A program made the translations under genes and the position numbers. DNA of 45,038 nt from Planctomycetota bacterium. GTDB lineage: Bacteria; Planctomycetota; Phycisphaerae; FEN-1346. The stretch lies in assembly GCA_016782785.1 (NCBI GenBank), contig JADHXV010000001.1, positions 1-45,038 of the forward strand, read 5' to 3'. Of this stretch, positions 940 through 39,529 are shown one piece after another; positions within the stretch are counted from its first letter, which is position 1; each line of letters begins with the position of its first letter. Under the pieces are notes generated by a model. It worked only from the letters and a program-made list of their open reading frames with translations. It was not told the origin of the DNA and made no database searches.

Positions 940-1863
940 ATGGTGTTGAAGAAGTGGCTGGGCAAACTCTCGTCGGGTCTGGCGAAGACGCGGTCGCGGC
1001 TGGCCGACGGCATGCGCGACCTTTTTCGCGTCGGCCGCAAGGTCGATGCGGCGTTTCTGGAGGAACTCGAGGAAACGCTCATCCTGGGCGACGTGGGCGT
1101 GGCCACCACCCAGCGGATCATCGAAGACCTGAAGGCCCGCTACCGCGACCGCGAGATCACCGCCGCCGACGATCTGCTCGGCATCATCAAGCGCGACCTC
1201 AAGGAAGGCCTGGGCGACGCCGACCGGTCGCTGCACACCAACCCCGACGGTCCCACGGTGGTGATGGTGGCGGGCGTCAACGGCAGCGGCAAGACGACGG
1301 CGGTGGCCCGGCTGGCGCGGATGCTCATGGGCCAGGGCCGCTCGGTCCTCCTGGCCGCGTGCGACACGTTCCGGGCCGCGGCCCACGAGCAACTCGGCAT
1401 CTGGAGCGACCGCGTCGGCGCCGACATGGTCCATCATCAGATGGGGGCCGACCCGGCGGCGGTGGCGTACGACGCGGCGGAGGCGGCCGTCTCGCGCGGC
1501 ATCGACTTCCTGCTGGTCGACACCGCCGGCCGCCTGCACACGCAGGACCACCTGATGCGGGAACTCTCGAAGATCCGCAACGTCCTGGCCAAGAAGGTGC
1601 CGGGCGCCCCGCACGAGGTCCTGCTGGTGCTCGACGCCACGACCGGCCAGAATGCCATCGCCCAGGCCAAGCAGTTCCGCGAGGCCACCGACGTGACGGG
1701 CGTGTTCCTGGCGAAACTGGACGGCACGGCCAAGGGGGGCATCGTGCTGGCCATCCGGAAGGAACTGGGCATCCCCGTCAAGTTCGTCGGCATCGGCGAG
1801 GGGCCGGACGACATTGCCCCCTTCGACCCCGACACGTTCGTCGAGGCGCTGTTCGGGGCTTGA
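940..1863 (+). CDS. ftsY: Signal recognition particle receptor FtsY (NG domain with a short N-terminus)
   Basis: GVNGSGKTTAVARLA (GTPase G1), DTAGRLHTQ (G3), LAKLDGTAKGG (G4-like) and a C-terminal GIGEGPDDIAPFDPDTFVEALF. The last 50 nt (1807-1856) are duplicated at 3762-3811. Confidence 0.95.
   Translation: MVLKKWLGKLSSGLAKTRSRLADGMRDLFRVGRKVDAAFLEELEETLILGDVGVATTQRIIEDLKARYRDREITAADDLLGIIKRDLKEGLGDADRSLHTNPDGPTVVMVAGVNGSGKTTAVARLARMLMGQGRSVLLAACDTFRAAAHEQLGIWSDRVGADMVHHQMGADPAAVAYDAAEAAVSRGIDFLLVDTAGRLHTQDHLMRELSKIRNVLAKKVPGAPHEVLLVLDATTGQNAIAQAKQFREATDVTGVFLAKLDGTAKGGIVLAIRKELGIPVKFVGIGEGPDDIAPFDPDTFVEALFGA
1807..1856 (+). repeat. Direct repeat, left copy (inside the ftsY 3' end)
   Basis: gacgacattgcccccttcgaccccgacacgttcgtcgaggcgctgttcgg is 49/50 identical to 3762-3811. 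The single difference is a synonymous att/atc change. Confidence 0.95.
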
Positions 1864-1936
1864 AGCCAACAGCTCTGTTGCTGTAGGCTGGCGTAGTGCT
1901 ATCATGGTGTGCGGACATTGTGCTTGGAGCCTGCGC

Positions 1937-3148
1937 GTGATCCCTCACATTCGCGAGGTCCGTATCAGGAACTACAAGAGCGTTGACCAGGCGGCGGTGT
2001 CTCTTGAGCCGTTTACGCTGCTTGTTGGTCCGAACGGTTCAGGGAAAAGCAACTTCATTGATTGCCTTGCCTTCGTGCAGGAGTGTCTGGCCGAGTCTAT
2101 CGAATTGGCTTTCAAGAACCGAGGTGGCATCAACGCAGTGCGCCGCAAGTCCGGCGGACATCCCACGCACATCGGCATCGGGCTGAGCCTGTGCTTGCAC
2201 GACGGCGGAACGGCTGACTACGGGTTCGAGATCGCGGCTGAGAAGGCCGGTGGCTTCCGCGTTGCGCGCGAGTCATGCCGCAGGCGTCCATTCATGGGGC
2301 CAGAGGCGGGCTTTGAGGTTGTCGACGGAGAGTTCATCAAGGAGATTGCTGGCATACGACCTAAGGTCTCGCCTGATCGCCTTGCCTTGTTTGCGGCATC
2401 CGCGACCGAGGAGTTCAGGCCGGTTTTTGACTTCCTCACCTCAATGCGCGTCTACTCGGTGGCTCCTGAACGGCTCCGCGAACTGCAGGATCCTGATCCC
2501 GGCGTATACCTTAAGCGTGATGGAAGCAACGCCGCCGCTGTACTCAAGCAAGTGAAGCAGGCAGGTGGAGGAAACGACAGGTACGCGCGGCTTTGTCGGC
2601 TACTTTCTAAGGTCGTGAGGGGCCTAAGCTGCGTTGAGTACCGACCCGTCGGCCAAAAGGAGACGCTTCAGTTCAGGCAGGATGTGGGCCTAGCCCACCC
2701 CTGGCGCTTCGATGCCCTCAACATGTCAGATGGTACTCTTCGCGCTCTGGGGCTGCTGCTGGCCGTTTACCAGGTCGGAAAGGCTTCAGTTGTGGCAGTC
2801 GAGGAGCCCGAGGCTACCGTGCATCCTGCGGTGATGGACGTGATCGTGGACGTACTCCTTGACGCCTCGAATGACCGTCAGGTGCTGGTAACCACCCATA
2901 GCCCCGACATCCTGGAGCACAAGGGGATCCGCGACAGCCAGATAAGAGTGGTAACACTTGATCAGAACCGGACCCTGATTTGCCCTCTGTCCGAGGCCAG
3001 TCGAGAAGCCGTGCGGAGTAAATTGTACACGCTGGGCGAATTGCTGAGGTCTGACGAACTCTCCGCGGACGTCAAGGCCGCCAAGAGGGCTGCTTCGGAG
3101 TTCAGCCTGTTTGACTCTGCCAAGGATCCATTCCAGACGCCGCAATGA
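1937..3148 (+). CDS. ABC-type ATPase of the AAA15/AAA21 (OLD/RecF-like) kind
   Basis: IREVRIRNYKSV N-terminus, Walker A GPNGSGKSN (2027-2053), signature-like MSDGTLRALGLL, Walker B/D-loop VVAVEEPEATVHP (from 2789) and H-loop VTTHSPDIL. The GTG 1937 start is favoured: GGAG lies 8 nt upstream, and a TTGCTG-16-TATCAT promoter-like motif at 1877-1904 would overlap the alternative ATG 1904. The ORF track starts it at 1814, inside ftsY. Confidence 0.85.
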   Translation: MIPHIREVRIRNYKSVDQAAVSLEPFTLLVGPNGSGKSNFIDCLAFVQECLAESIELAFKNRGGINAVRRKSGGHPTHIGIGLSLCLHDGGTADYGFEIAAEKAGGFRVARESCRRRPFMGPEAGFEVVDGEFIKEIAGIRPKVSPDRLALFAASATEEFRPVFDFLTSMRVYSVAPERLRELQDPDPGVYLKRDGSNAAAVLKQVKQAGGGNDRYARLCRLLSKVVRGLSCVEYRPVGQKETLQFRQDVGLAHPWRFDALNMSDGTLRALGLLLAVYQVGKASVVAVEEPEATVHPAVMDVIVDVLLDASNDRQVLVTTHSPDILEHKGIRDSQIRVVTLDQNRTLICPLSEASREAVRSKLYTLGELLRSDELSADVKAAKRAASEFSLFDSAKDPFQTPQ

Positions 3149-3753
3149 CCGCCTCAATCGCCACTATTGTGGAGGGCCAGTCAGAGGTCCAGAGCGTGCC
3201 GGTCCTCTTGCGCCGTATCCTCTCCGAGTGCTTGGGCGCTTCCGGTGTTGATGTGGTTCGGCCCTTCCGGGTTCCACGCACCAAGATCGCAAGGGAACGC
3301 GAACTGGAGCGGGCGGTAAAGCAGACGCTGAGAGACAGGCCCAACGTTGAGGCCATACTGGTACTGCTGGATGCCGACGACGACGATCCCGCCGCCTTCG
3401 GACTGGCGCTTGCCGAGCGGGCGCAACAGGTGAGCGCCAAACCGGTGGCCGTGGTTCTGGCGACGAGAGAACTCGAGGCCTGGTTCCTGGGGGCCAAACG
3501 CTCTCTCAGGGGGGTCAGAGGCATTCGCGATGACGCCGAGCCGCCACCCAACCCAGAGGGTATGCGGGGAGCCAAAGAGTCGCTCTCCCGCAATATGACC
3601 GGTCGGCGGTATCTTGAGGTAGATGATCAGCCTGCACTGGCCGGTAGAATGGACCTTGAGGCGGCGAAGGCAGCCTGTCCGTCGTTCGCCAGACTTGTGC
3701 GGGAGGTGACGCGCCTCGTGGCATGCATTCCGTCCTCTCTGCGCGGTGGATGA
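3145..3753 (+). CDS. DUF4276-type small protein with a Toprim-like acidic motif pattern
   Basis: IVEGQSE (3166-3186), LLDADDDD (3364-3387) and ELEAWFL (3469-3489); 202 aa. Its ATG overlaps the TGA of the upstream ATPase (ATGA at 3145-3148), implying translational coupling. The family assignment is from motif memory and has not been searched. Confidence 0.7.
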   Translation: MTASIATIVEGQSEVQSVPVLLRRILSECLGASGVDVVRPFRVPRTKIARERELERAVKQTLRDRPNVEAILVLLDADDDDPAAFGLALAERAQQVSAKPVAVVLATRELEAWFLGAKRSLRGVRGIRDDAEPPPNPEGMRGAKESLSRNMTGRRYLEVDDQPALAGRMDLEAAKAACPSFARLVREVTRLVACIPSSLRGG

Positions 3754-3761
3754 GAGGCGCC

Positions 3762-3811
3762 GACGACATCGCCCCCTTCGACCCCGACACGTTCGTCGAG
3801 GCGCTGTTCGG
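3762..3811 (+). repeat. Direct repeat, right copy
   Basis: 49/50 identical to 1807-1856. It begins 8 nt after the stop of the DUF4276-type gene. Confidence 0.95.
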
Positions 3812-3827
3812 ATCCGGCGAGGAATAA
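3762..3827 (+). pseudogene. Orphan duplicate of the ftsY 3' end (DDIAPFDPDTFVEALFGSGEE*)
   Basis: It reads in frame as the last FtsY residues plus a different tail (GSGEE, TAA at 3825-3827), with no upstream coding continuation. This is probably the original ftsY terminus displaced by the insertion. Confidence 0.7.
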
Positions 3828-3981: not shown

Positions 3982-4473
3982 ATGAGCACGGCACAGGACA
4001 AGAAGAAGGTCATCGAACTGCTGAACCAGGGCCGGGCGGCTGAACTGACGGCCATCATGCAGTACATGGCCCAGCACTACGAACTCGATGACGCCGACTA
4101 CGGCAAACTCGCCAAGATCATGAAGACCATCGGCATCCAGGAGATGAACCACGCCGAGCAACTCGCCGAACGGATCCTGTACCTCGGCGGCACGCCGACG
4201 TCGGAGCCGGACGGCAAGGTCACCAAGGGCCAGGACATCGCCGCCATGCTCAAGCGCGACATCGGCCTGGAGACGGGGGCCGTCGAGATGTACAACGCCT
4301 CCGCCATGGGCTGCGCCAAGGCCGGCGACCACACGTCCAAGCAACTGTTTCAGGACCTCCTGCAGGACGAGGAGGAACACCTGGGCCAGTTCCAGAACAT
4401 CCAGGACCACGTCGCCAAACTGGGCGACGCATACCTGGCCACGCTCGTCGGCGATCAGGGCGGCGAGGCGTAG
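3982..4473 (+). CDS. bfr: Bacterioferritin / ferritin-like di-iron protein
   Basis: LNQGRAAELTAIMQYMAQHY, IQEMNHAEQLAERILYLGGTP and LLQDEEEHL give the Bfr-type E/ExxH ligand pattern. RBS gaggagaa lies 5 nt before ATG 3982. Confidence 0.85.
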   Translation: MSTAQDKKKVIELLNQGRAAELTAIMQYMAQHYELDDADYGKLAKIMKTIGIQEMNHAEQLAERILYLGGTPTSEPDGKVTKGQDIAAMLKRDIGLETGAVEMYNASAMGCAKAGDHTSKQLFQDLLQDEEEHLGQFQNIQDHVAKLGDAYLATLVGDQGGEA

Positions 4474-4506: not shown

Positions 4507-4530
4507 TTGGGGTGAGGGCGAGAACACACC

Positions 4531-4552
4531 GCGCGGCCCGCATGGGCCGCGC
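4531..4552. repeat. REP-F hairpin copy 2 (gcgcggccc-gcat-gggccgcgc)
   Basis: The stem is identical to 832-853 and the loop differs. Confidence 0.75.
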
Positions 4553-4572
4553 CGAACCGCGGTTTTCCCCGC

Positions 4573-4615
4573 GATGTCATTCTGAGGGTCGCCTTGCGAC
4601 CCGAAGAATCTCGCC
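4573..4615 (+). repeat. REP-A element copy 2
   Basis: gatgtcattctgag-ggtcgccttgcgaccc-gaagaatctcgcc. The flanks are identical to 865-909. The internal hairpin has a different sequence but is still self-complementary (ggtcgc/gcgacc). Confidence 0.8.
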
Positions 4616-6484: not shown

Positions 6485-6512
6485 GCGCGGCGGGTGCGGA
6501 GACCCGCCGCGC
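6485..6512. repeat. REP-B palindrome copy 2 (gcgcggcgggtgcggagacccgccgcgc)
   Basis: 28/28 identical to 37608-37635, and inverted relative to 782-809. Confidence 0.85.
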
Positions 6513-6559: not shown

Positions 6560-8122
6560 ATGTCCGCACACGACCACGCCGGACCGGATGCGTCCCATTT
6601 GCACTGTTGCTGCGGCGGCGAGCGAGGCGACCCCGGCGGTGTGTCTCGCCGCGCGTTCCTGCAGGCCACCGGCGTGGCGTTCACGGCGGCCGCCCTGGCT
6701 GGCTGCGCCTACGAGGCCGTCCGCAGCGCCGTCCCGCTGGAGGACGCGGCGCCGCCGCGCAAGCCCCTCATCGTCAAGCCCGTCTTCGCCTATGCCACGT
6801 ATAAGCCCAGGCCGAAGACCAGCTGGCGGTCGTGGGGCGGCATCCAGACGCAGGCGGACGCCGACGCCGAGGTCCAGCGCATCCAGGCGGAACTCGCCCA
6901 ACTCCAGGCCCAGGCCGACTTCCCCGTCCAGTTTCTGCCGGTCGCGCCCGTCCGGAACCCCAACGAATTCAAGGCCGTCGCCGACCTCGACCAAGCCGAC
7001 GCCCTTATCGTCTACGCGGCCGGCGGCCCGCAGAGCACGTTCGACGCCGTCGTCGCGACCGGCAAGCACGTCATCTTCTTCGTCCGCCACCGGTCGGGGC
7101 CGGTGTACCTGTGGTACGAGATCATCTCGCCGCGCTACCTCCGCCAGCACACCGACACGCTGTCGGTCAAGGGCGTGGACTTTACCGACGTGGTCGTGGA
7201 CTCGCAGGACGACATCGCCTGGCGGCTGCGGTCGCTCTCGGGCCTGAAGAATACGCTCGGCTCCAGCATCGTCTGCATCGGCGGACCGGGCGGCTGGTCC
7301 ACGCCCGCGGCCCCGGACCTGACCAAGGCCAAGTGGAAGATGGACCTCCAGACCGTCACGTACAAGGAACTGGGTGAACTCATCAAGCAGGCCCGGGCCG
7401 ACGAGGCCGCCCTGAAGCGCGCCCGCGACCGCGCCGCCGCCTACCTGGCCGACCCGGCCGTCTCGCTCGAAACCAAGCCCGAGTACATCGAGCGGTGCTT
7501 CATGCTCGACGACATTTTCCGCGGCCTGATGGCCAAGGCCGGCACCAAGGCCATCACCGTCCATAACTGCATGGGCACCATCATGGGCGTGTCCGACACC
7601 ACGGCCTGCATGACGCTCTCGACGCTGAACGACGCGGGGTACCTGGCGTTCTGCGAGTCGGACTTCGTGGTCATTCCGGCGGGCGTCCTGATGGCCAACA
7701 TCACCAACCAGCCGGTGTTCCTGAACGACCCCACGTACCCGCACCACGGCATCACCACGCTGGCTCACTGCACGGCCCCGCGGCGGATGGACGGCAAGAA
7801 CCTGGAACCCGTTCGCCTCGTCACCCACTTCGAGTCCGACTTCGGGGCCGCCCCGAAGGTCGAGATGCACAAGGGCCAGGTCATCACGAACGTGCTGCCG
7901 GACTTCAAGGCCGAACGCTGGGTCGGCCTGAAGGCCAAGATCATCGACGCCCCGTTCCTGCCCATCTGCCGGAGCCAGATTGACATCGCCTACGGGGTTG
8001 ACGACGACCTCGTGGCCGAACGCATGCCGGGCTTCCACTGGATGACCGTCTACGGCGACTGGCGGCGCGAGATCGGCTACGCCCTGAAGAAGATTCCCAT
8101 CACGTGGGAGGACCTGGGGTGA
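6560..8122 (+). CDS. Tat-signal (probable lipoprotein) protein, possibly sugar-isomerase-like; function unknown
   Basis: RBS aaggagg precedes ATG 6560. The N-terminus is MSAHDHAGPDASHLHCCCGGERGDPGGVSRRAFLQATGVAFTAAALAGC, giving a twin-arginine motif plus an LAGC lipobox. The C-terminal half (AFCESDF, LAHCTAP) is reminiscent of the fucose/arabinose isomerase fold, but that is a weak impression. Confidence 0.65.
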   Translation: MSAHDHAGPDASHLHCCCGGERGDPGGVSRRAFLQATGVAFTAAALAGCAYEAVRSAVPLEDAAPPRKPLIVKPVFAYATYKPRPKTSWRSWGGIQTQADADAEVQRIQAELAQLQAQADFPVQFLPVAPVRNPNEFKAVADLDQADALIVYAAGGPQSTFDAVVATGKHVIFFVRHRSGPVYLWYEIISPRYLRQHTDTLSVKGVDFTDVVVDSQDDIAWRLRSLSGLKNTLGSSIVCIGGPGGWSTPAAPDLTKAKWKMDLQTVTYKELGELIKQARADEAALKRARDRAAAYLADPAVSLETKPEYIERCFMLDDIFRGLMAKAGTKAITVHNCMGTIMGVSDTTACMTLSTLNDAGYLAFCESDFVVIPAGVLMANITNQPVFLNDPTYPHHGITTLAHCTAPRRMDGKNLEPVRLVTHFESDFGAAPKVEMHKGQVITNVLPDFKAERWVGLKAKIIDAPFLPICRSQIDIAYGVDDDLVAERMPGFHWMTVYGDWRREIGYALKKIPITWEDLG

Positions 8123-10622: not shown

Positions 10623-12071
10623 ATGGTTCGCGCCATCGTCCGTTGTGCACTCGTGTGGTCTGTCGCGCTAGCCGCCGGAGCGGCCCTGGCGGCGGAACCC
10701 GCACCTTCCGCCGAGCCTGCCGAGCCCGCCCGGCCGCGCGACATCAGCGGCGTCTTTCCTGACCTTGCCGTCCGCACGCCCGACGTGCCCGGCAGCGAGA
10801 GCGGCATCGGGGCGCTGATGCCCTGGGCCGACCGCCTCTGGATGGTCACCTACGTGGCCCACATCAAGGGCGAGGGCACGGGCCTCTTCGAGATCACGCC
10901 CGATTTCCGCCGCATCAAGCGGCCGGAGAGTGTCGTCGGCACGTATGCCAACCGCATGATCCACGTGCCGTCGAAGCAGTGCATCATCGGGCCGCACTTC
11001 ATCGACGTGGAGCGCAACGTCCGCACGTGCGACGGCGTCAAGGGCCACCGCCTGACCGCCACCATGACTCACCTCACCGAGCCCGACAAGATGGTCTACT
11101 TTCTCACCATGGAAGGCCTGCTGTTCGAGGTGGACGTGAAGTCGCTCGAGGCCCGCCAGGTCGCGGACGTGAAGAAGGAACTGGGCATCGAGGGCAAGTG
11201 CCATTTCAAGGGCGGCTTCACGGGGGCCGGACGCGTCGTCGTCGCCAACAACTCGTACGACGAGCAGGACGTCCTCGGCAAACGCCACGACGGCCGGCTG
11301 GCCGAGTGGGATGGAAAGAAATGGACCATCCTCGAGCGCACCGCCTTCTGCGAGGTCATGGGCAACGGCCGCGTCATCTTCGCCACCGGCTGGGACGGGG
11401 CCTCGGTCATCCTCAAGATGTTCGCCAACGGCCGGTGGACCACCTACCGCCTGCCCAAGGCCAGCCACGCGTACGACCACGCGTGGTTCACCGAGTGGCC
11501 GCGGATTCGCGAGGTGGAAACCGAGCGGTATCTGATGCACATGCACGGCATGTTCTACGAACTCTCGACGCTGGCCTACGAGGGTTGGCCGTGGGCCCTG
11601 AGACCCATCGCCACGCACCTGCGGATCATCCCGGACTTCTGCTCGTGGCGCGGCCTGACGGTCCTGGCGGGCGACGAGGCCACCGCCGTCGGCGGGAACC
11701 TCTGGGCCGGCCAGCCCCAGTCCAACCTCGTCTTCCTCAAGACCGACGATCTGTGGCGCTTCGGCAAGCCGAAGGGTTTCGGTGGCGTGTGGCGCCAGAG
11801 CCAGGTCAAGGCCGACACGCCCTCCGACCCCTACCTCATGACCGGCTTCGACAAGAAGTGCCTCCACCTGGCGCACGAGGCCGACCGCCAGGTCACCTTC
11901 ACGGTCGAGGTGGACTTCATCGGCAACGGCTCGTGGAAGCCGTACGGCAAGATCACTGTCCCGCCGAAGGGATATGAGCACCACGAGTTTCCCGCCGGTT
12001 TCGGCGCTCACTGGGTCCGCGTGACGTCCGACGCCGAGTGCACCGCCACGGCGTGGTTCACGTACGACTGA
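10623..12071 (+). CDS. Secreted protein of unknown function
   Basis: MVRAIVRCALVWSVALAAGAALAAEP is a signal peptide, followed by a long, compositionally normal ORF. The first 467 codons of track ORF 9222..12071 are an out-of-frame overlap with two real genes and were trimmed. Confidence 0.65.
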   Translation: MVRAIVRCALVWSVALAAGAALAAEPAPSAEPAEPARPRDISGVFPDLAVRTPDVPGSESGIGALMPWADRLWMVTYVAHIKGEGTGLFEITPDFRRIKRPESVVGTYANRMIHVPSKQCIIGPHFIDVERNVRTCDGVKGHRLTATMTHLTEPDKMVYFLTMEGLLFEVDVKSLEARQVADVKKELGIEGKCHFKGGFTGAGRVVVANNSYDEQDVLGKRHDGRLAEWDGKKWTILERTAFCEVMGNGRVIFATGWDGASVILKMFANGRWTTYRLPKASHAYDHAWFTEWPRIREVETERYLMHMHGMFYELSTLAYEGWPWALRPIATHLRIIPDFCSWRGLTVLAGDEATAVGGNLWAGQPQSNLVFLKTDDLWRFGKPKGFGGVWRQSQVKADTPSDPYLMTGFDKKCLHLAHEADRQVTFTVEVDFIGNGSWKPYGKITVPPKGYEHHEFPAGFGAHWVRVTSDAECTATAWFTYD

Positions 12072-37555: not shown

Positions 37556-37635
37556 CCGCGCGGTGGGTCTCCGTACCCACCGCGCGGTGCGGGGATGATG
37601 GTGCTAGTGCGCGGCGGGTGCGGAGACCCGCCGCG
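37556..37635. repeat. Inverted pair of REP-B palindromes (37556-37585 and 37608-37635) between convergent trkA and rpiB
   Basis: cgcgcggtgggtctccgtacccaccgcgcg, then 22 nt, then gcgcggcgggtgcggagacccgccgcgc. The second is identical to 6485-6512. This is likely a bidirectional terminator or REP site. Confidence 0.8.
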
Positions 37636-37651
37636 CGAAAATGAATGGCCG

Positions 37652-39478: not shown

Positions 39479-39497
39479 ACGACAACAACGGCAACCA

Positions 39498-39529
39498 CAT
39501 TTAGCCGCCGGACTTGTCCGGCGCGTGTT
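39498..39529 (+). repeat. REP-C element copy 2
   Basis: 32/32 identical to 6428-6459. Confidence 0.9.

Follow-up and report, generated by a model that had tools for sequence, protein, structure and literature searches.

How does a cassette that encodes no recombinase come to lie within the end of an essential housekeeping gene? The question is raised by a 45,038-nt stretch of Planctomycetota DNA (the window), in which the working copy of ftsY (signal recognition particle receptor; 940 to 1863, plus strand; Pfam SRP54, 1e-73, and SRP54_N) is followed by a two-gene HEC-01 operon and then by an orphan copy of its own last codons. The best explanation, to which we give an even chance, is that a horizontally acquired, recombinase-less module was inserted by exchanges inside a 41-nt block of identical ftsY-tail sequence, with host homologous recombination, presumably of the RecA type, as the agent. 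The module is a real mobile unit that probably moves by short homology arms.

The insertion site is delimited by a direct repeat. The left, attL-like copy (1807 to 1856, plus strand) consists of the ftsY tail codons DDIAPFDPDTFVEALFG, and the right, attR-like copy (3762 to 3811, plus strand) belongs to the orphan tail. The two are identical at 49 of 50 positions, the sole mismatch (T at 1815, C at 3770) being a synonymous ATT/ATC change in an isoleucine codon, and BLAST lengthened the match to 1798 to 1856 and 3754 to 3811 with one gap. At up to 3 mismatches the 50-nt repeat occurred exactly twice in the window, a count reached in none of 100 shuffles and thus far beyond chance. The working gene, whose identical 307-aa product was also called on contigs L007 and L008, terminates in FVEALFGA, and the downstream copy reads in frame as DDIAPFDPDTFVEALFGSGEE up to a stop at 3825 to 3827. 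The 1,905 bp between the repeats (1857 to 3761) hold a 73-nt leader, gene 1 and gene 2, the latter stopping 8 nt short of the right repeat. GC content is about 0.59 within the cassette (roughly 0.55 to 0.65) compared with about 0.70 in ftsY (roughly 0.69 to 0.76), and the GC content at third codon positions (GC3) is 0.69 and 0.70 for the two cassette genes versus 0.87 to 0.93 for their neighbors. The repeat with its synonymous change, the orphan tail, the interval, the 8-nt gap and the lower GC content had all been described in the initial annotation of this locus and were confirmed. An assembly artifact, which had been named there as a possible cause, does not account for the arrangement, since several independent assemblies cross the junctions (L002, 1802 to 7162; L001, 1 to 3816; NCBI contig L008, 350 to 2011; and L014, 3699 to 5255).

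The cassette opens with a leader (1864 to 1936, plus strand) that forms the left end of a discrete module and contains a promoter-like motif, TTGC and TATCAT separated by 16 nt. This leader aligns with those of L103, L024, L109, L112 to L114 and L108, in which the motif is conserved. A strict sigma-70 scan gave no promoter call for the motif; the leader presumably acts as a promoter, from which the cassette would be expressed. The first gene, hecA (1937 to 3148, plus strand), encodes HEC-01A, an ABC-type ATPase with an AAA_21/AAA_15/SMC_N head (PADLOC PDLC04178, E = 4.9e-129; Pfam) and with PDB sequence matches to the OLD, PtuA and AriA ATPases. The second, hecB (3145 to 3753, plus strand), encodes HEC-01B, a DUF4276 protein (PADLOC PDLC04196, E = 3e-65; Pfam DUF4276, 6.7e-19), a family of predicted nucleases of the TOPRIM superfamily (PMC12065111; bioRxiv 10.1101/2024.01.29.577857). 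Its start overlaps the hecA stop by 4 nt (ATGA). With HEC-01A and HEC-01B side by side in an overlapping two-gene operon and strong matches to both profiles, the cassette corresponds to the HEC-01 of PADLOC. HEC-01, a "Hma-embedded candidate" system in which an ABC ATPase is paired with a TOPRIM protein, gave no protection against the coliphages tried in one published test (bioRxiv 10.1101/2024.01.29.577857). In plan it is related to OLD, PARIS and Gabija, a class of systems that combine an ABC ATPase with TOPRIM; the cassette is a candidate antiphage defense operon. As the initial annotation had stated, it carries no mobility gene: Pfam showed only the ATPase and DUF4276, with no recombinase or transposase domain in either gene, and no spare coding space is left. 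There is thus no recombinase in cis.

The locus was found in several metagenomes by exact-protein look-up, and all assemblies break at the repeats. In sample ERZ24794671, contig L011 joins window positions 1802 to 1856 directly to 3812 onward and is an exact empty site. It holds the host-specific GGCCG and T1815, reads PDDIAPFDPDTFVEALFGSGEE up to the stop (ALFGSGEE) and continues into the same spacer and bfr, the ferritin/bacterioferritin-like gene that is the native downstream neighbor of ftsY (3982 to 4473, plus strand; Pfam Ferritin, 5.9e-28). The empty site that had been predicted, with ftsY ending in GSGEE and running into the region upstream of bfr, thus exists in the same population. 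Coverages in this sample (13.2 for the upstream contig L019, 3.4 for the cassette contig L004 and 11.6 for L011) and in ERZ24794679 (18.8 upstream, 5.7 for the cassette and 21.4 for the empty/downstream sequence) fit a mixed population in which about a quarter of the cells carry the cassette. In ERZ24794672, nearly all cells do (54.7 for the single contig with upstream sequence and cassette, 56.2 downstream). Carriers differed by 0 to 1 single nucleotide polymorphism over the 1.9-kb cassette, and all of them combined a T in the left copy with a C in the right one; their flanks are more diverse. Near-zero cassette diversity next to variable flanks indicates one recent acquisition. The HEC-01 cassette is missing from two close relatives, L025 and L026; bfr directly follows ftsY in L026, and about 0.95 kb of unrelated sequence separates the two genes in L025. 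The insertion is derived and polymorphic, and the earlier view of the locus as an insertion scar with att-like repeats and an element-supplied ftsY end is borne out by the empty allele and by these relatives.

The same module is present in a second species. The closest hecA (P0001, 96% aa identity) lies on contigs L103 to L107 and L111, in the order ribH, arabinofuranosidase gene, nusB, ftsY, hecA, hecB and then, not bfr, but an open reading frame (ORF) of about 1,900 aa that is truncated by the end of the contig. FtsY of the two species is 84% and NusB 65% identical at the amino acid level, and the ftsY bodies are 83.3% identical in nucleotides; the cassettes are 95.2% identical in nucleotides and align without gaps. 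L103 also has an ftsY tail duplication, identical at 52 of 56 positions. Both species have the left junction, ACGTTCGTCGAGGCGCTGTTCGGGGCTTGAAGCCAACAG, and share TTCGGGGCTTGAAGCCAACAG (window, L103/L111), and this junction is therefore module-borne. It includes the replacement ftsY end (1857 to 1863, plus strand; G|GCTTGA, giving Ala-stop), which is identical in the other host species, so that the last codons of the working ftsY (FGA) come from the inserted module. The junction from the hecB stop to the orphan, GGTGG(A/G)TGAGAGGCGCCGACGACATCGCCCCCTTCGACCCCGACAC, is likewise identical in the window and in L103/L111 (GGTGG(A/G)TGAGAGGCGCCGACGACATC). It contains a 5' extension of the orphan tail (3754 to 3761, plus strand; GAGGCGCC) that resembles the E-G-A type of ftsY found in other species and is unlike the GAGGGGCCG of the window host. 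At this place ftsY of the window has GAGGGGCCGGACGACATT instead of GAGGCGCCGACGACATC, and the orphan's start therefore came in with the cassette. Beyond this shared junction the orphan ends are host specific (GTTCGTC..GGATCCGGCGAGGAATAA in the window, CTTCATC..TTCGCTTGA in L103). The 3' part of the L103 orphan is that host's own end (TFIEALFA), and in the window the displaced native end (SGEE; 3812 to 3827, plus strand) runs on into the native ftsY-bfr spacer.

These comparisons locate the exchanges. The left copy in the window is of host type through 1815 (T), its upstream GGGGCCG and T1815 being also found in the empty-site contig, and the right copy is of module type at least through 3770 (C); positions 1816 to 1856 form a 41-nt block identical to 3771 to 3811. 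Exchange on the left side thus took place past 1815 and exchange on the right side past 3770, which puts both within the identical block. In L111, the left copy is a mosaic of module-type and orphan-type bases, suggesting gene conversion between the two tails. The GC3 of the cassette genes was 0.63 to 0.70 versus 0.81 to 0.96 for the hosts in all four hosts examined. The alignments show that the two species have the module and both of its junctions in common.

A further set of modules, which we call type II, is an independent replicate of the pattern in two more hosts. L114 and L160 carry a 72 to 74% identical HEC-01, the module tail FGGGEA, and a different right junction, common to the two (TCTGCCA followed by CCCTTCGACCCCGACAC), with the orphan starting at -55. 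The orphan ends and downstream genes are again host specific, namely, FGGGA and then a cupin gene in L114, and ALFA and then bfr in L160. All hecA relatives of at least 68% identity with readable flanks lie directly after ftsY in related planctomycete contigs, except that of L108, and those of at most 66% identity sit elsewhere. In a neighbor-joining tree the ftsY-linked hecA genes formed essentially one clade, which makes the association with the locus an old one, followed by exchange between lineages. Some members (L024, L109 and L113) lack an orphan, which is what a transfer with homology on both flanks should give. The idea that the cassette was inherited vertically from a common ancestor was rejected because hecA divergence does not track FtsY divergence, L103 being a clear outlier.

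Several HEC-01 operons outside this pattern deserve mention. In L108 (6097 to 7896), an ftsY-clade HEC-01 (75% aa identity) lies away from ftsY. Its leader starts in the same way (GAAGTTTTGTTGCC) and flanking repeats are absent; the cassette thus also behaves as a discrete unit at another place. Flanking repeats were not found in about 20 non-ftsY HEC-01 relatives, L119 excepted, and are thus not a general property of HEC-01. In L119, an unrelated genome of about 57% GC, HEC-01 (56% identical) lies between two copies (608 to 820 and about 2779 to 2968), 85 to 87% identical, of a complete 70-aa gene together with the sequence upstream of it, a situation that differs from that of the ftsY tails. 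Contigs L157, L158 and L159, from three samples, carry a 75%-identical ftsY-linked HEC-01 and all stop exactly 150 nt into hecB, which suggests strain-level variation inside the cassette.

The module is a 1,955-bp unit that runs from a complete replacement ftsY tail (GA) through the promoter-like leader and the HEC-01 operon to the 5' part of a second ftsY tail. It is homologous to the ftsY tail on both sides, and exchanges within this tail have brought it into no fewer than four different hosts. Because both of its ends match the highly conserved last 50 to 60 nt of ftsY, any related genome can receive it in its ftsY tail, independently of what follows downstream. Exchanges within 1816 to 1856 and 3771 to 3811 generated the observed order of host ftsY, module tail (GA), cassette, imported tail start, native SGEE end and bfr. 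A linear donor could enter by a double crossover or by synthesis-dependent strand annealing (SDSA) carried out by host recombination, and a circularized copy by a single Campbell-type crossover, which would duplicate the homologous piece. By the reverse route, the same repeats would allow precise loss of the module. The overall logic is that of 3'-end ("C-terminal") displacement with short homology arms. Its elements, that is, a retained 5' anchor, a new 3' end with foreign genes and an orphaned old end, were found in the window, L103, L114, L160, L031 and L071. The proposal would cover the transfer of ready-made modules and not the first formation of cassette-to-orphan junctions.

HEC-01 is not the only cargo found at this site. 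In Sedimentisphaerales genomes, orphan ftsY tails bracket a transglutaminase-like gene (L031 and L053), two glycoside hydrolase genes on the opposite strand (L071), a PepSY/response-regulator/kinase set, i.e., a two-component system (L092 and L055), and smaller inserts (L065 and L076). The slot from ftsY to its usual neighbor, identified by inspection as a pyrophosphate-dependent phosphofructokinase gene, is highly variable. Across Phycisphaerae, the ftsY tail has thus served repeatedly as the insertion point of several unrelated modules that lack a recombinase; this, and the imported, non-host start of the right-hand copy, go beyond what the initial annotation had recognized. The two tails of L031, like those of L071, differ almost solely at synonymous sites, and both therefore evolved as working ftsY ends in separate lineages before they were joined. 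Orphans start 38 to 73 nt before the ftsY stop, mostly at 55 to 65 nt, and the sequences to their left are unrelated among different cargo, without a conserved motif. In L069 (about 6890 to 6970), a 21- to 25-nt duplication of the extreme ftsY end (GTCGAAGCTCTATTTAATTGATTT) with a 25-nt insert between the copies is possibly a footprint, or else a minimal event, of this hotspot.

Several observations weigh against host recombination through short arms. Blocks of 36 to 46 identical nt are near the lower limit for RecA-dependent exchange, and their repeated success across species is notable. The tails of L071 share only 87% identity, no identical run exceeds 13 nt, and eight of eight differences are synonymous; they are too dissimilar for homologous exchange within the tail. 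The left boundaries of orphans with independent cargo all lie between -38 and -73, and three or four of them fall at -62 to -65; such clustering is suggestive of a break or crossover at a specific site during the first formation of each module. Moreover, ftsY tails account for 6 of about 22 short direct repeats in 893 kb, with no other gene-end duplication evident; since a generic process should also strike other conserved genes, duplications confined to ftsY argue against one. Since no more than two or three transfers have been mapped, the crossover point could also be a fixed one within GCCCCCTTCGACCCCGACAC. Because of the ftsY specificity, the clustered starts, L071 and the short identity blocks, a recombinase acting in trans or a nuclease-induced break is possible, chiefly at first module formation.

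A recombinase in trans would make the cassette an integrase-less islet, similar to a cis-mobilizable element (CIME) or a satellite, moved by a tyrosine or serine recombinase that the host or a helper element would encode elsewhere and that would use a core site in the ftsY tail to excise and integrate whatever DNA two such sites enclose. The classic att architecture, with a restored 3' end, flanking direct repeats and a precise empty site, agrees with this scheme, as do the specificity of the tail duplications for ftsY, the clustered orphan boundaries and the precedent of small integrase-less islands with att repeats (PMC3191183). In both L103 and L031, identity over the 5' part of the repeat extends for exactly 36 nt before the copies diverge, and a single fixed core at positions 10 to 29 of the 50-mer would fit the exchange intervals that were mapped. 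However, Pfam detected no integrase, resolvase or transposase among the 30 window genes, no recombinase gene was present among about 30 genes inspected downstream of ftsY in relatives, and no integrase-bearing element stood at ftsY in about 100 related loci, a survey of loci and not of whole genomes. Probes for XerD, lambda-Int and resolvase, of which the first and last were validated and lambda-Int was not, gave no phmmer match in the 1.23 Mb of fetched DNA. A phage or plasmid carrier was rejected, as no viral contig carried an ftsY tail or a close hecA and plasmid hecA matches were at most 30% identical. The tail itself lacks a dyad-symmetric core or hairpin, its fold z-scores (-0.3 to -1.9) being no different from those of shuffles; the sequences to the left of the orphans are unrelated, and the two HEC-01 lineages differ in boundary (-64 versus -55). 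The predicted circle junction (GGTGGATGAGAGGCGCCGACGACATC..TTCGGGGCTTGAAGCC) had no match in assembled metagenome contigs of the Joint Genome Institute (JGI), and none of six carrier contigs was permuted. We consider mobilization in trans rather unlikely. Other candidate routes were discarded: integrative mobile elements exploiting Xer (dif/Xer, IMEX), as the tail has no dif-like dyad and there is no terminus-like GC-skew switch (a local cumulative skew peak lies near 3.9 kb, and wider windows and the upstream contig showed no strand switch); an integron gene cassette with an attC-like folded site, given fold energies like those of shuffles and no integrase nearby; and restriction sites as the cause of the boundary (GGCGCC and GAAGAC), whose positions, judged by eye only, do not fit. 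Transfer through cDNA from an internal transcription start at the orphan boundary is unlikely, as the L071 cargo is on the opposite strand.

Alternatively, a nuclease might cut the empty ftsY tail and the break be repaired by copying a module-bearing template, the nuclease coming from HNH-AP2 genes of the hotspot or, conceivably, being the module's own TOPRIM protein. With a template lacking downstream homology, illegitimate end joining would make the orphan start at the cut, and later repair would be fully homologous. Such homing accounts for clustered orphan starts with arbitrary sequence on their left, for the ftsY specificity, for varied cargo including genes on the opposite strand and for the missing recombinase. 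Of 80 related loci, 5 do have a homing-endonuclease-like HNH_3+AP2 gene no more than 6 kb downstream of ftsY (L035, 6985 to 7626; L079, 5180 to 5755; L031, 9655 to 10224, all three on the minus strand; L070; and L077); in L035 and L079 it directly adjoins the ftsY stop. Such genes are absent, however, from the window and L103; in addition, the switch from host to module in the window is found 17 nt or more to the right of the common boundary, and boundaries are not identical (-38 to -73). Homing is thus an improbable explanation. The least credible one, which we regard as highly improbable, is decay in situ of a larger integrase-bearing island or an ancient, vertically inherited local duplication. 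The single clade of HEC-01 after ftsY in many related lineages, some without an orphan, speaks for an old association, but the empty allele occurs in the same population, the orphan starts with non-host sequence common to another species, the cassettes are 95% identical between species whose ftsY genes are 83% identical, carriers show almost no cassette diversity, and the GC3 difference holds in all four hosts. The eroded remnant suggested in the initial annotation is also at odds with the same compact module and identical junctions in L103/L111 and with the lack of integrase-bearing elements in the loci surveyed.

It is possible, though doubtful, that the last approximately 60 nt of ftsY are a dedicated safe-harbor insertion site in Phycisphaerae, served by an undescribed mechanism. 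One possibility is that modules evolved bilateral mimicry of the tail of an essential gene and so home across species without an enzyme; another is a host or helper nuclease or recombinase that would cut about 62 to 65 nt before the ftsY stop and load arbitrary cargo, such as defense genes, glycosidases or two-component systems. The ftsY specificity and the clustered boundaries are a genuine residue that keeps this more novel reading alive.

Short-arm recombination has partial parallels in known systems. In the minimal mobile elements of Neisseria, strain-specific genes lie between conserved genes and are exchanged by flanking homologous recombination. The ftsY modules resemble them in being small accessory cassettes without mobility genes, in a variable slot, with presence and absence within a species. 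Unlike here, however, those elements need both flanking genes to be conserved; at ftsY the downstream gene may vary (bfr, cupin, the ORF of about 1,900 aa) because the right-hand homology travels inside the module as a partial ftsY tail. Streptococcus CIMEs are integrase-less, att-flanked islets mobilized in trans. With such islets, for example, the microcin H47 island (PMC3191183), the ftsY modules share flanking att-like repeats, the lack of a recombination module, a precise empty site and a gene 3' end as target, but no cognate integrase-bearing element was found at the ftsY site and there is no recognizable recombinase core. Compared with an integrase-mediated 3'-end island, the flanking repeats and the supplied 3' end are present, whereas the site-specific recombinase gene is absent from the cassette.

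The closest match is the 3'-end displacement by homology-facilitated illegitimate recombination (HFIR) proposed for arrays of Rhs, contact-dependent inhibition (CDI) and type VI secretion system (T6SS) genes (PMC5361080). In both cases the incoming DNA shares a constant 5' part and brings a new 3' end with downstream genes, the old 3' end is orphaned downstream with a short stretch of the constant region still attached, recombinases play no part, and arrays can accumulate (compare L053 and L092). The differences are that ftsY is an essential housekeeping anchor of which only the last 13 to 22 codons are swapped, leaving the protein almost unchanged, that the cargo is unrelated to ftsY function, and that the module is homologous on both sides and re-inserts in other species. 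In Escherichia coli lacZ, single-crossover integration of circular DNA with a truncated homologous segment duplicates part of the locus (PMC3240628). As at ftsY, heterologous DNA then lies between direct duplications with a boundary set by the end of the carried homology; the duplications, however, measured 109 to 950 bp in those experiments and 40 to 65 bp here, and the ftsY case is natural, with interspecies spread and clustered boundaries. The initial annotation had considered an unusual or undescribed mechanism. That claim is only partly right, as the architecture matches the known, if little-documented, 3'-end displacement through one-sided or short-arm homologous recombination (PMC5361080 and PMC3240628). 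Most probably, a known process acts here in a short-arm form guided by homology, and the case is not a new category.

Some further features of these contigs were recorded. The orphan tail of the window (3750 to 3827) is an intact small ORF of 25 aa (MRGADDIAPFDPDTFVEALFGSGEE) whose ATG overlaps the hecB stop (ATGA); L103 has a GTG at the equivalent place, and the type-II modules L114 and L160 have an in-frame ATG six codons before the orphan. The ORF could be translated as a mimic of the FtsY C terminus or could be due to chance. GC-rich palindromic intergenic repeats resembling repetitive extragenic palindromic (REP) sequences occur in the window at 782 to 809 and 6485 to 6512, at 830 to 857 and 4529 to 4556, at 865 to 910 and 4573 to 4615, and also at 37608 to 37640 and 39489 to 39529 (e.g., GCGCGGCGGGTCTCCGCACCCACCGCGC and GATGTCATTCTGAG..GAAGAATCTCGCC), and a similar motif follows the L103 orphan. 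At 10668 to 12011 (minus strand), the best ORF (447 aa; GC3 of 0.63 versus about 0.9 in neighbors; no Pfam match) is either another foreign gene or a miscalled frame in a segment of lower GC. The conserved gene string around ftsY holds other inserts, namely, the alpha-L-arabinofuranosidase gene between ribH and nusB in L103 (791 to 2506), and L109 has a HicA/HicB toxin-antitoxin pair between trmO and ribH (3018 to 3430).

Many defense and other accessory genes are found in tiny islets without mobility genes, whose route of arrival is largely unknown, and the ftsY module is a concrete, replicated natural example. It carries its own short arms to the end of an essential conserved gene, segregates in a wild population and has crossed species with its junctions intact. 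This makes the question testable, i.e., whether arms of 40 to 60 nt and RecA are sufficient or whether a hidden enzyme specific for the ftsY tail is involved. The ftsY 3' end is also a hotspot to inspect in the annotation of Planctomycetota, in which the repeat breaks metagenome assemblies at this point.

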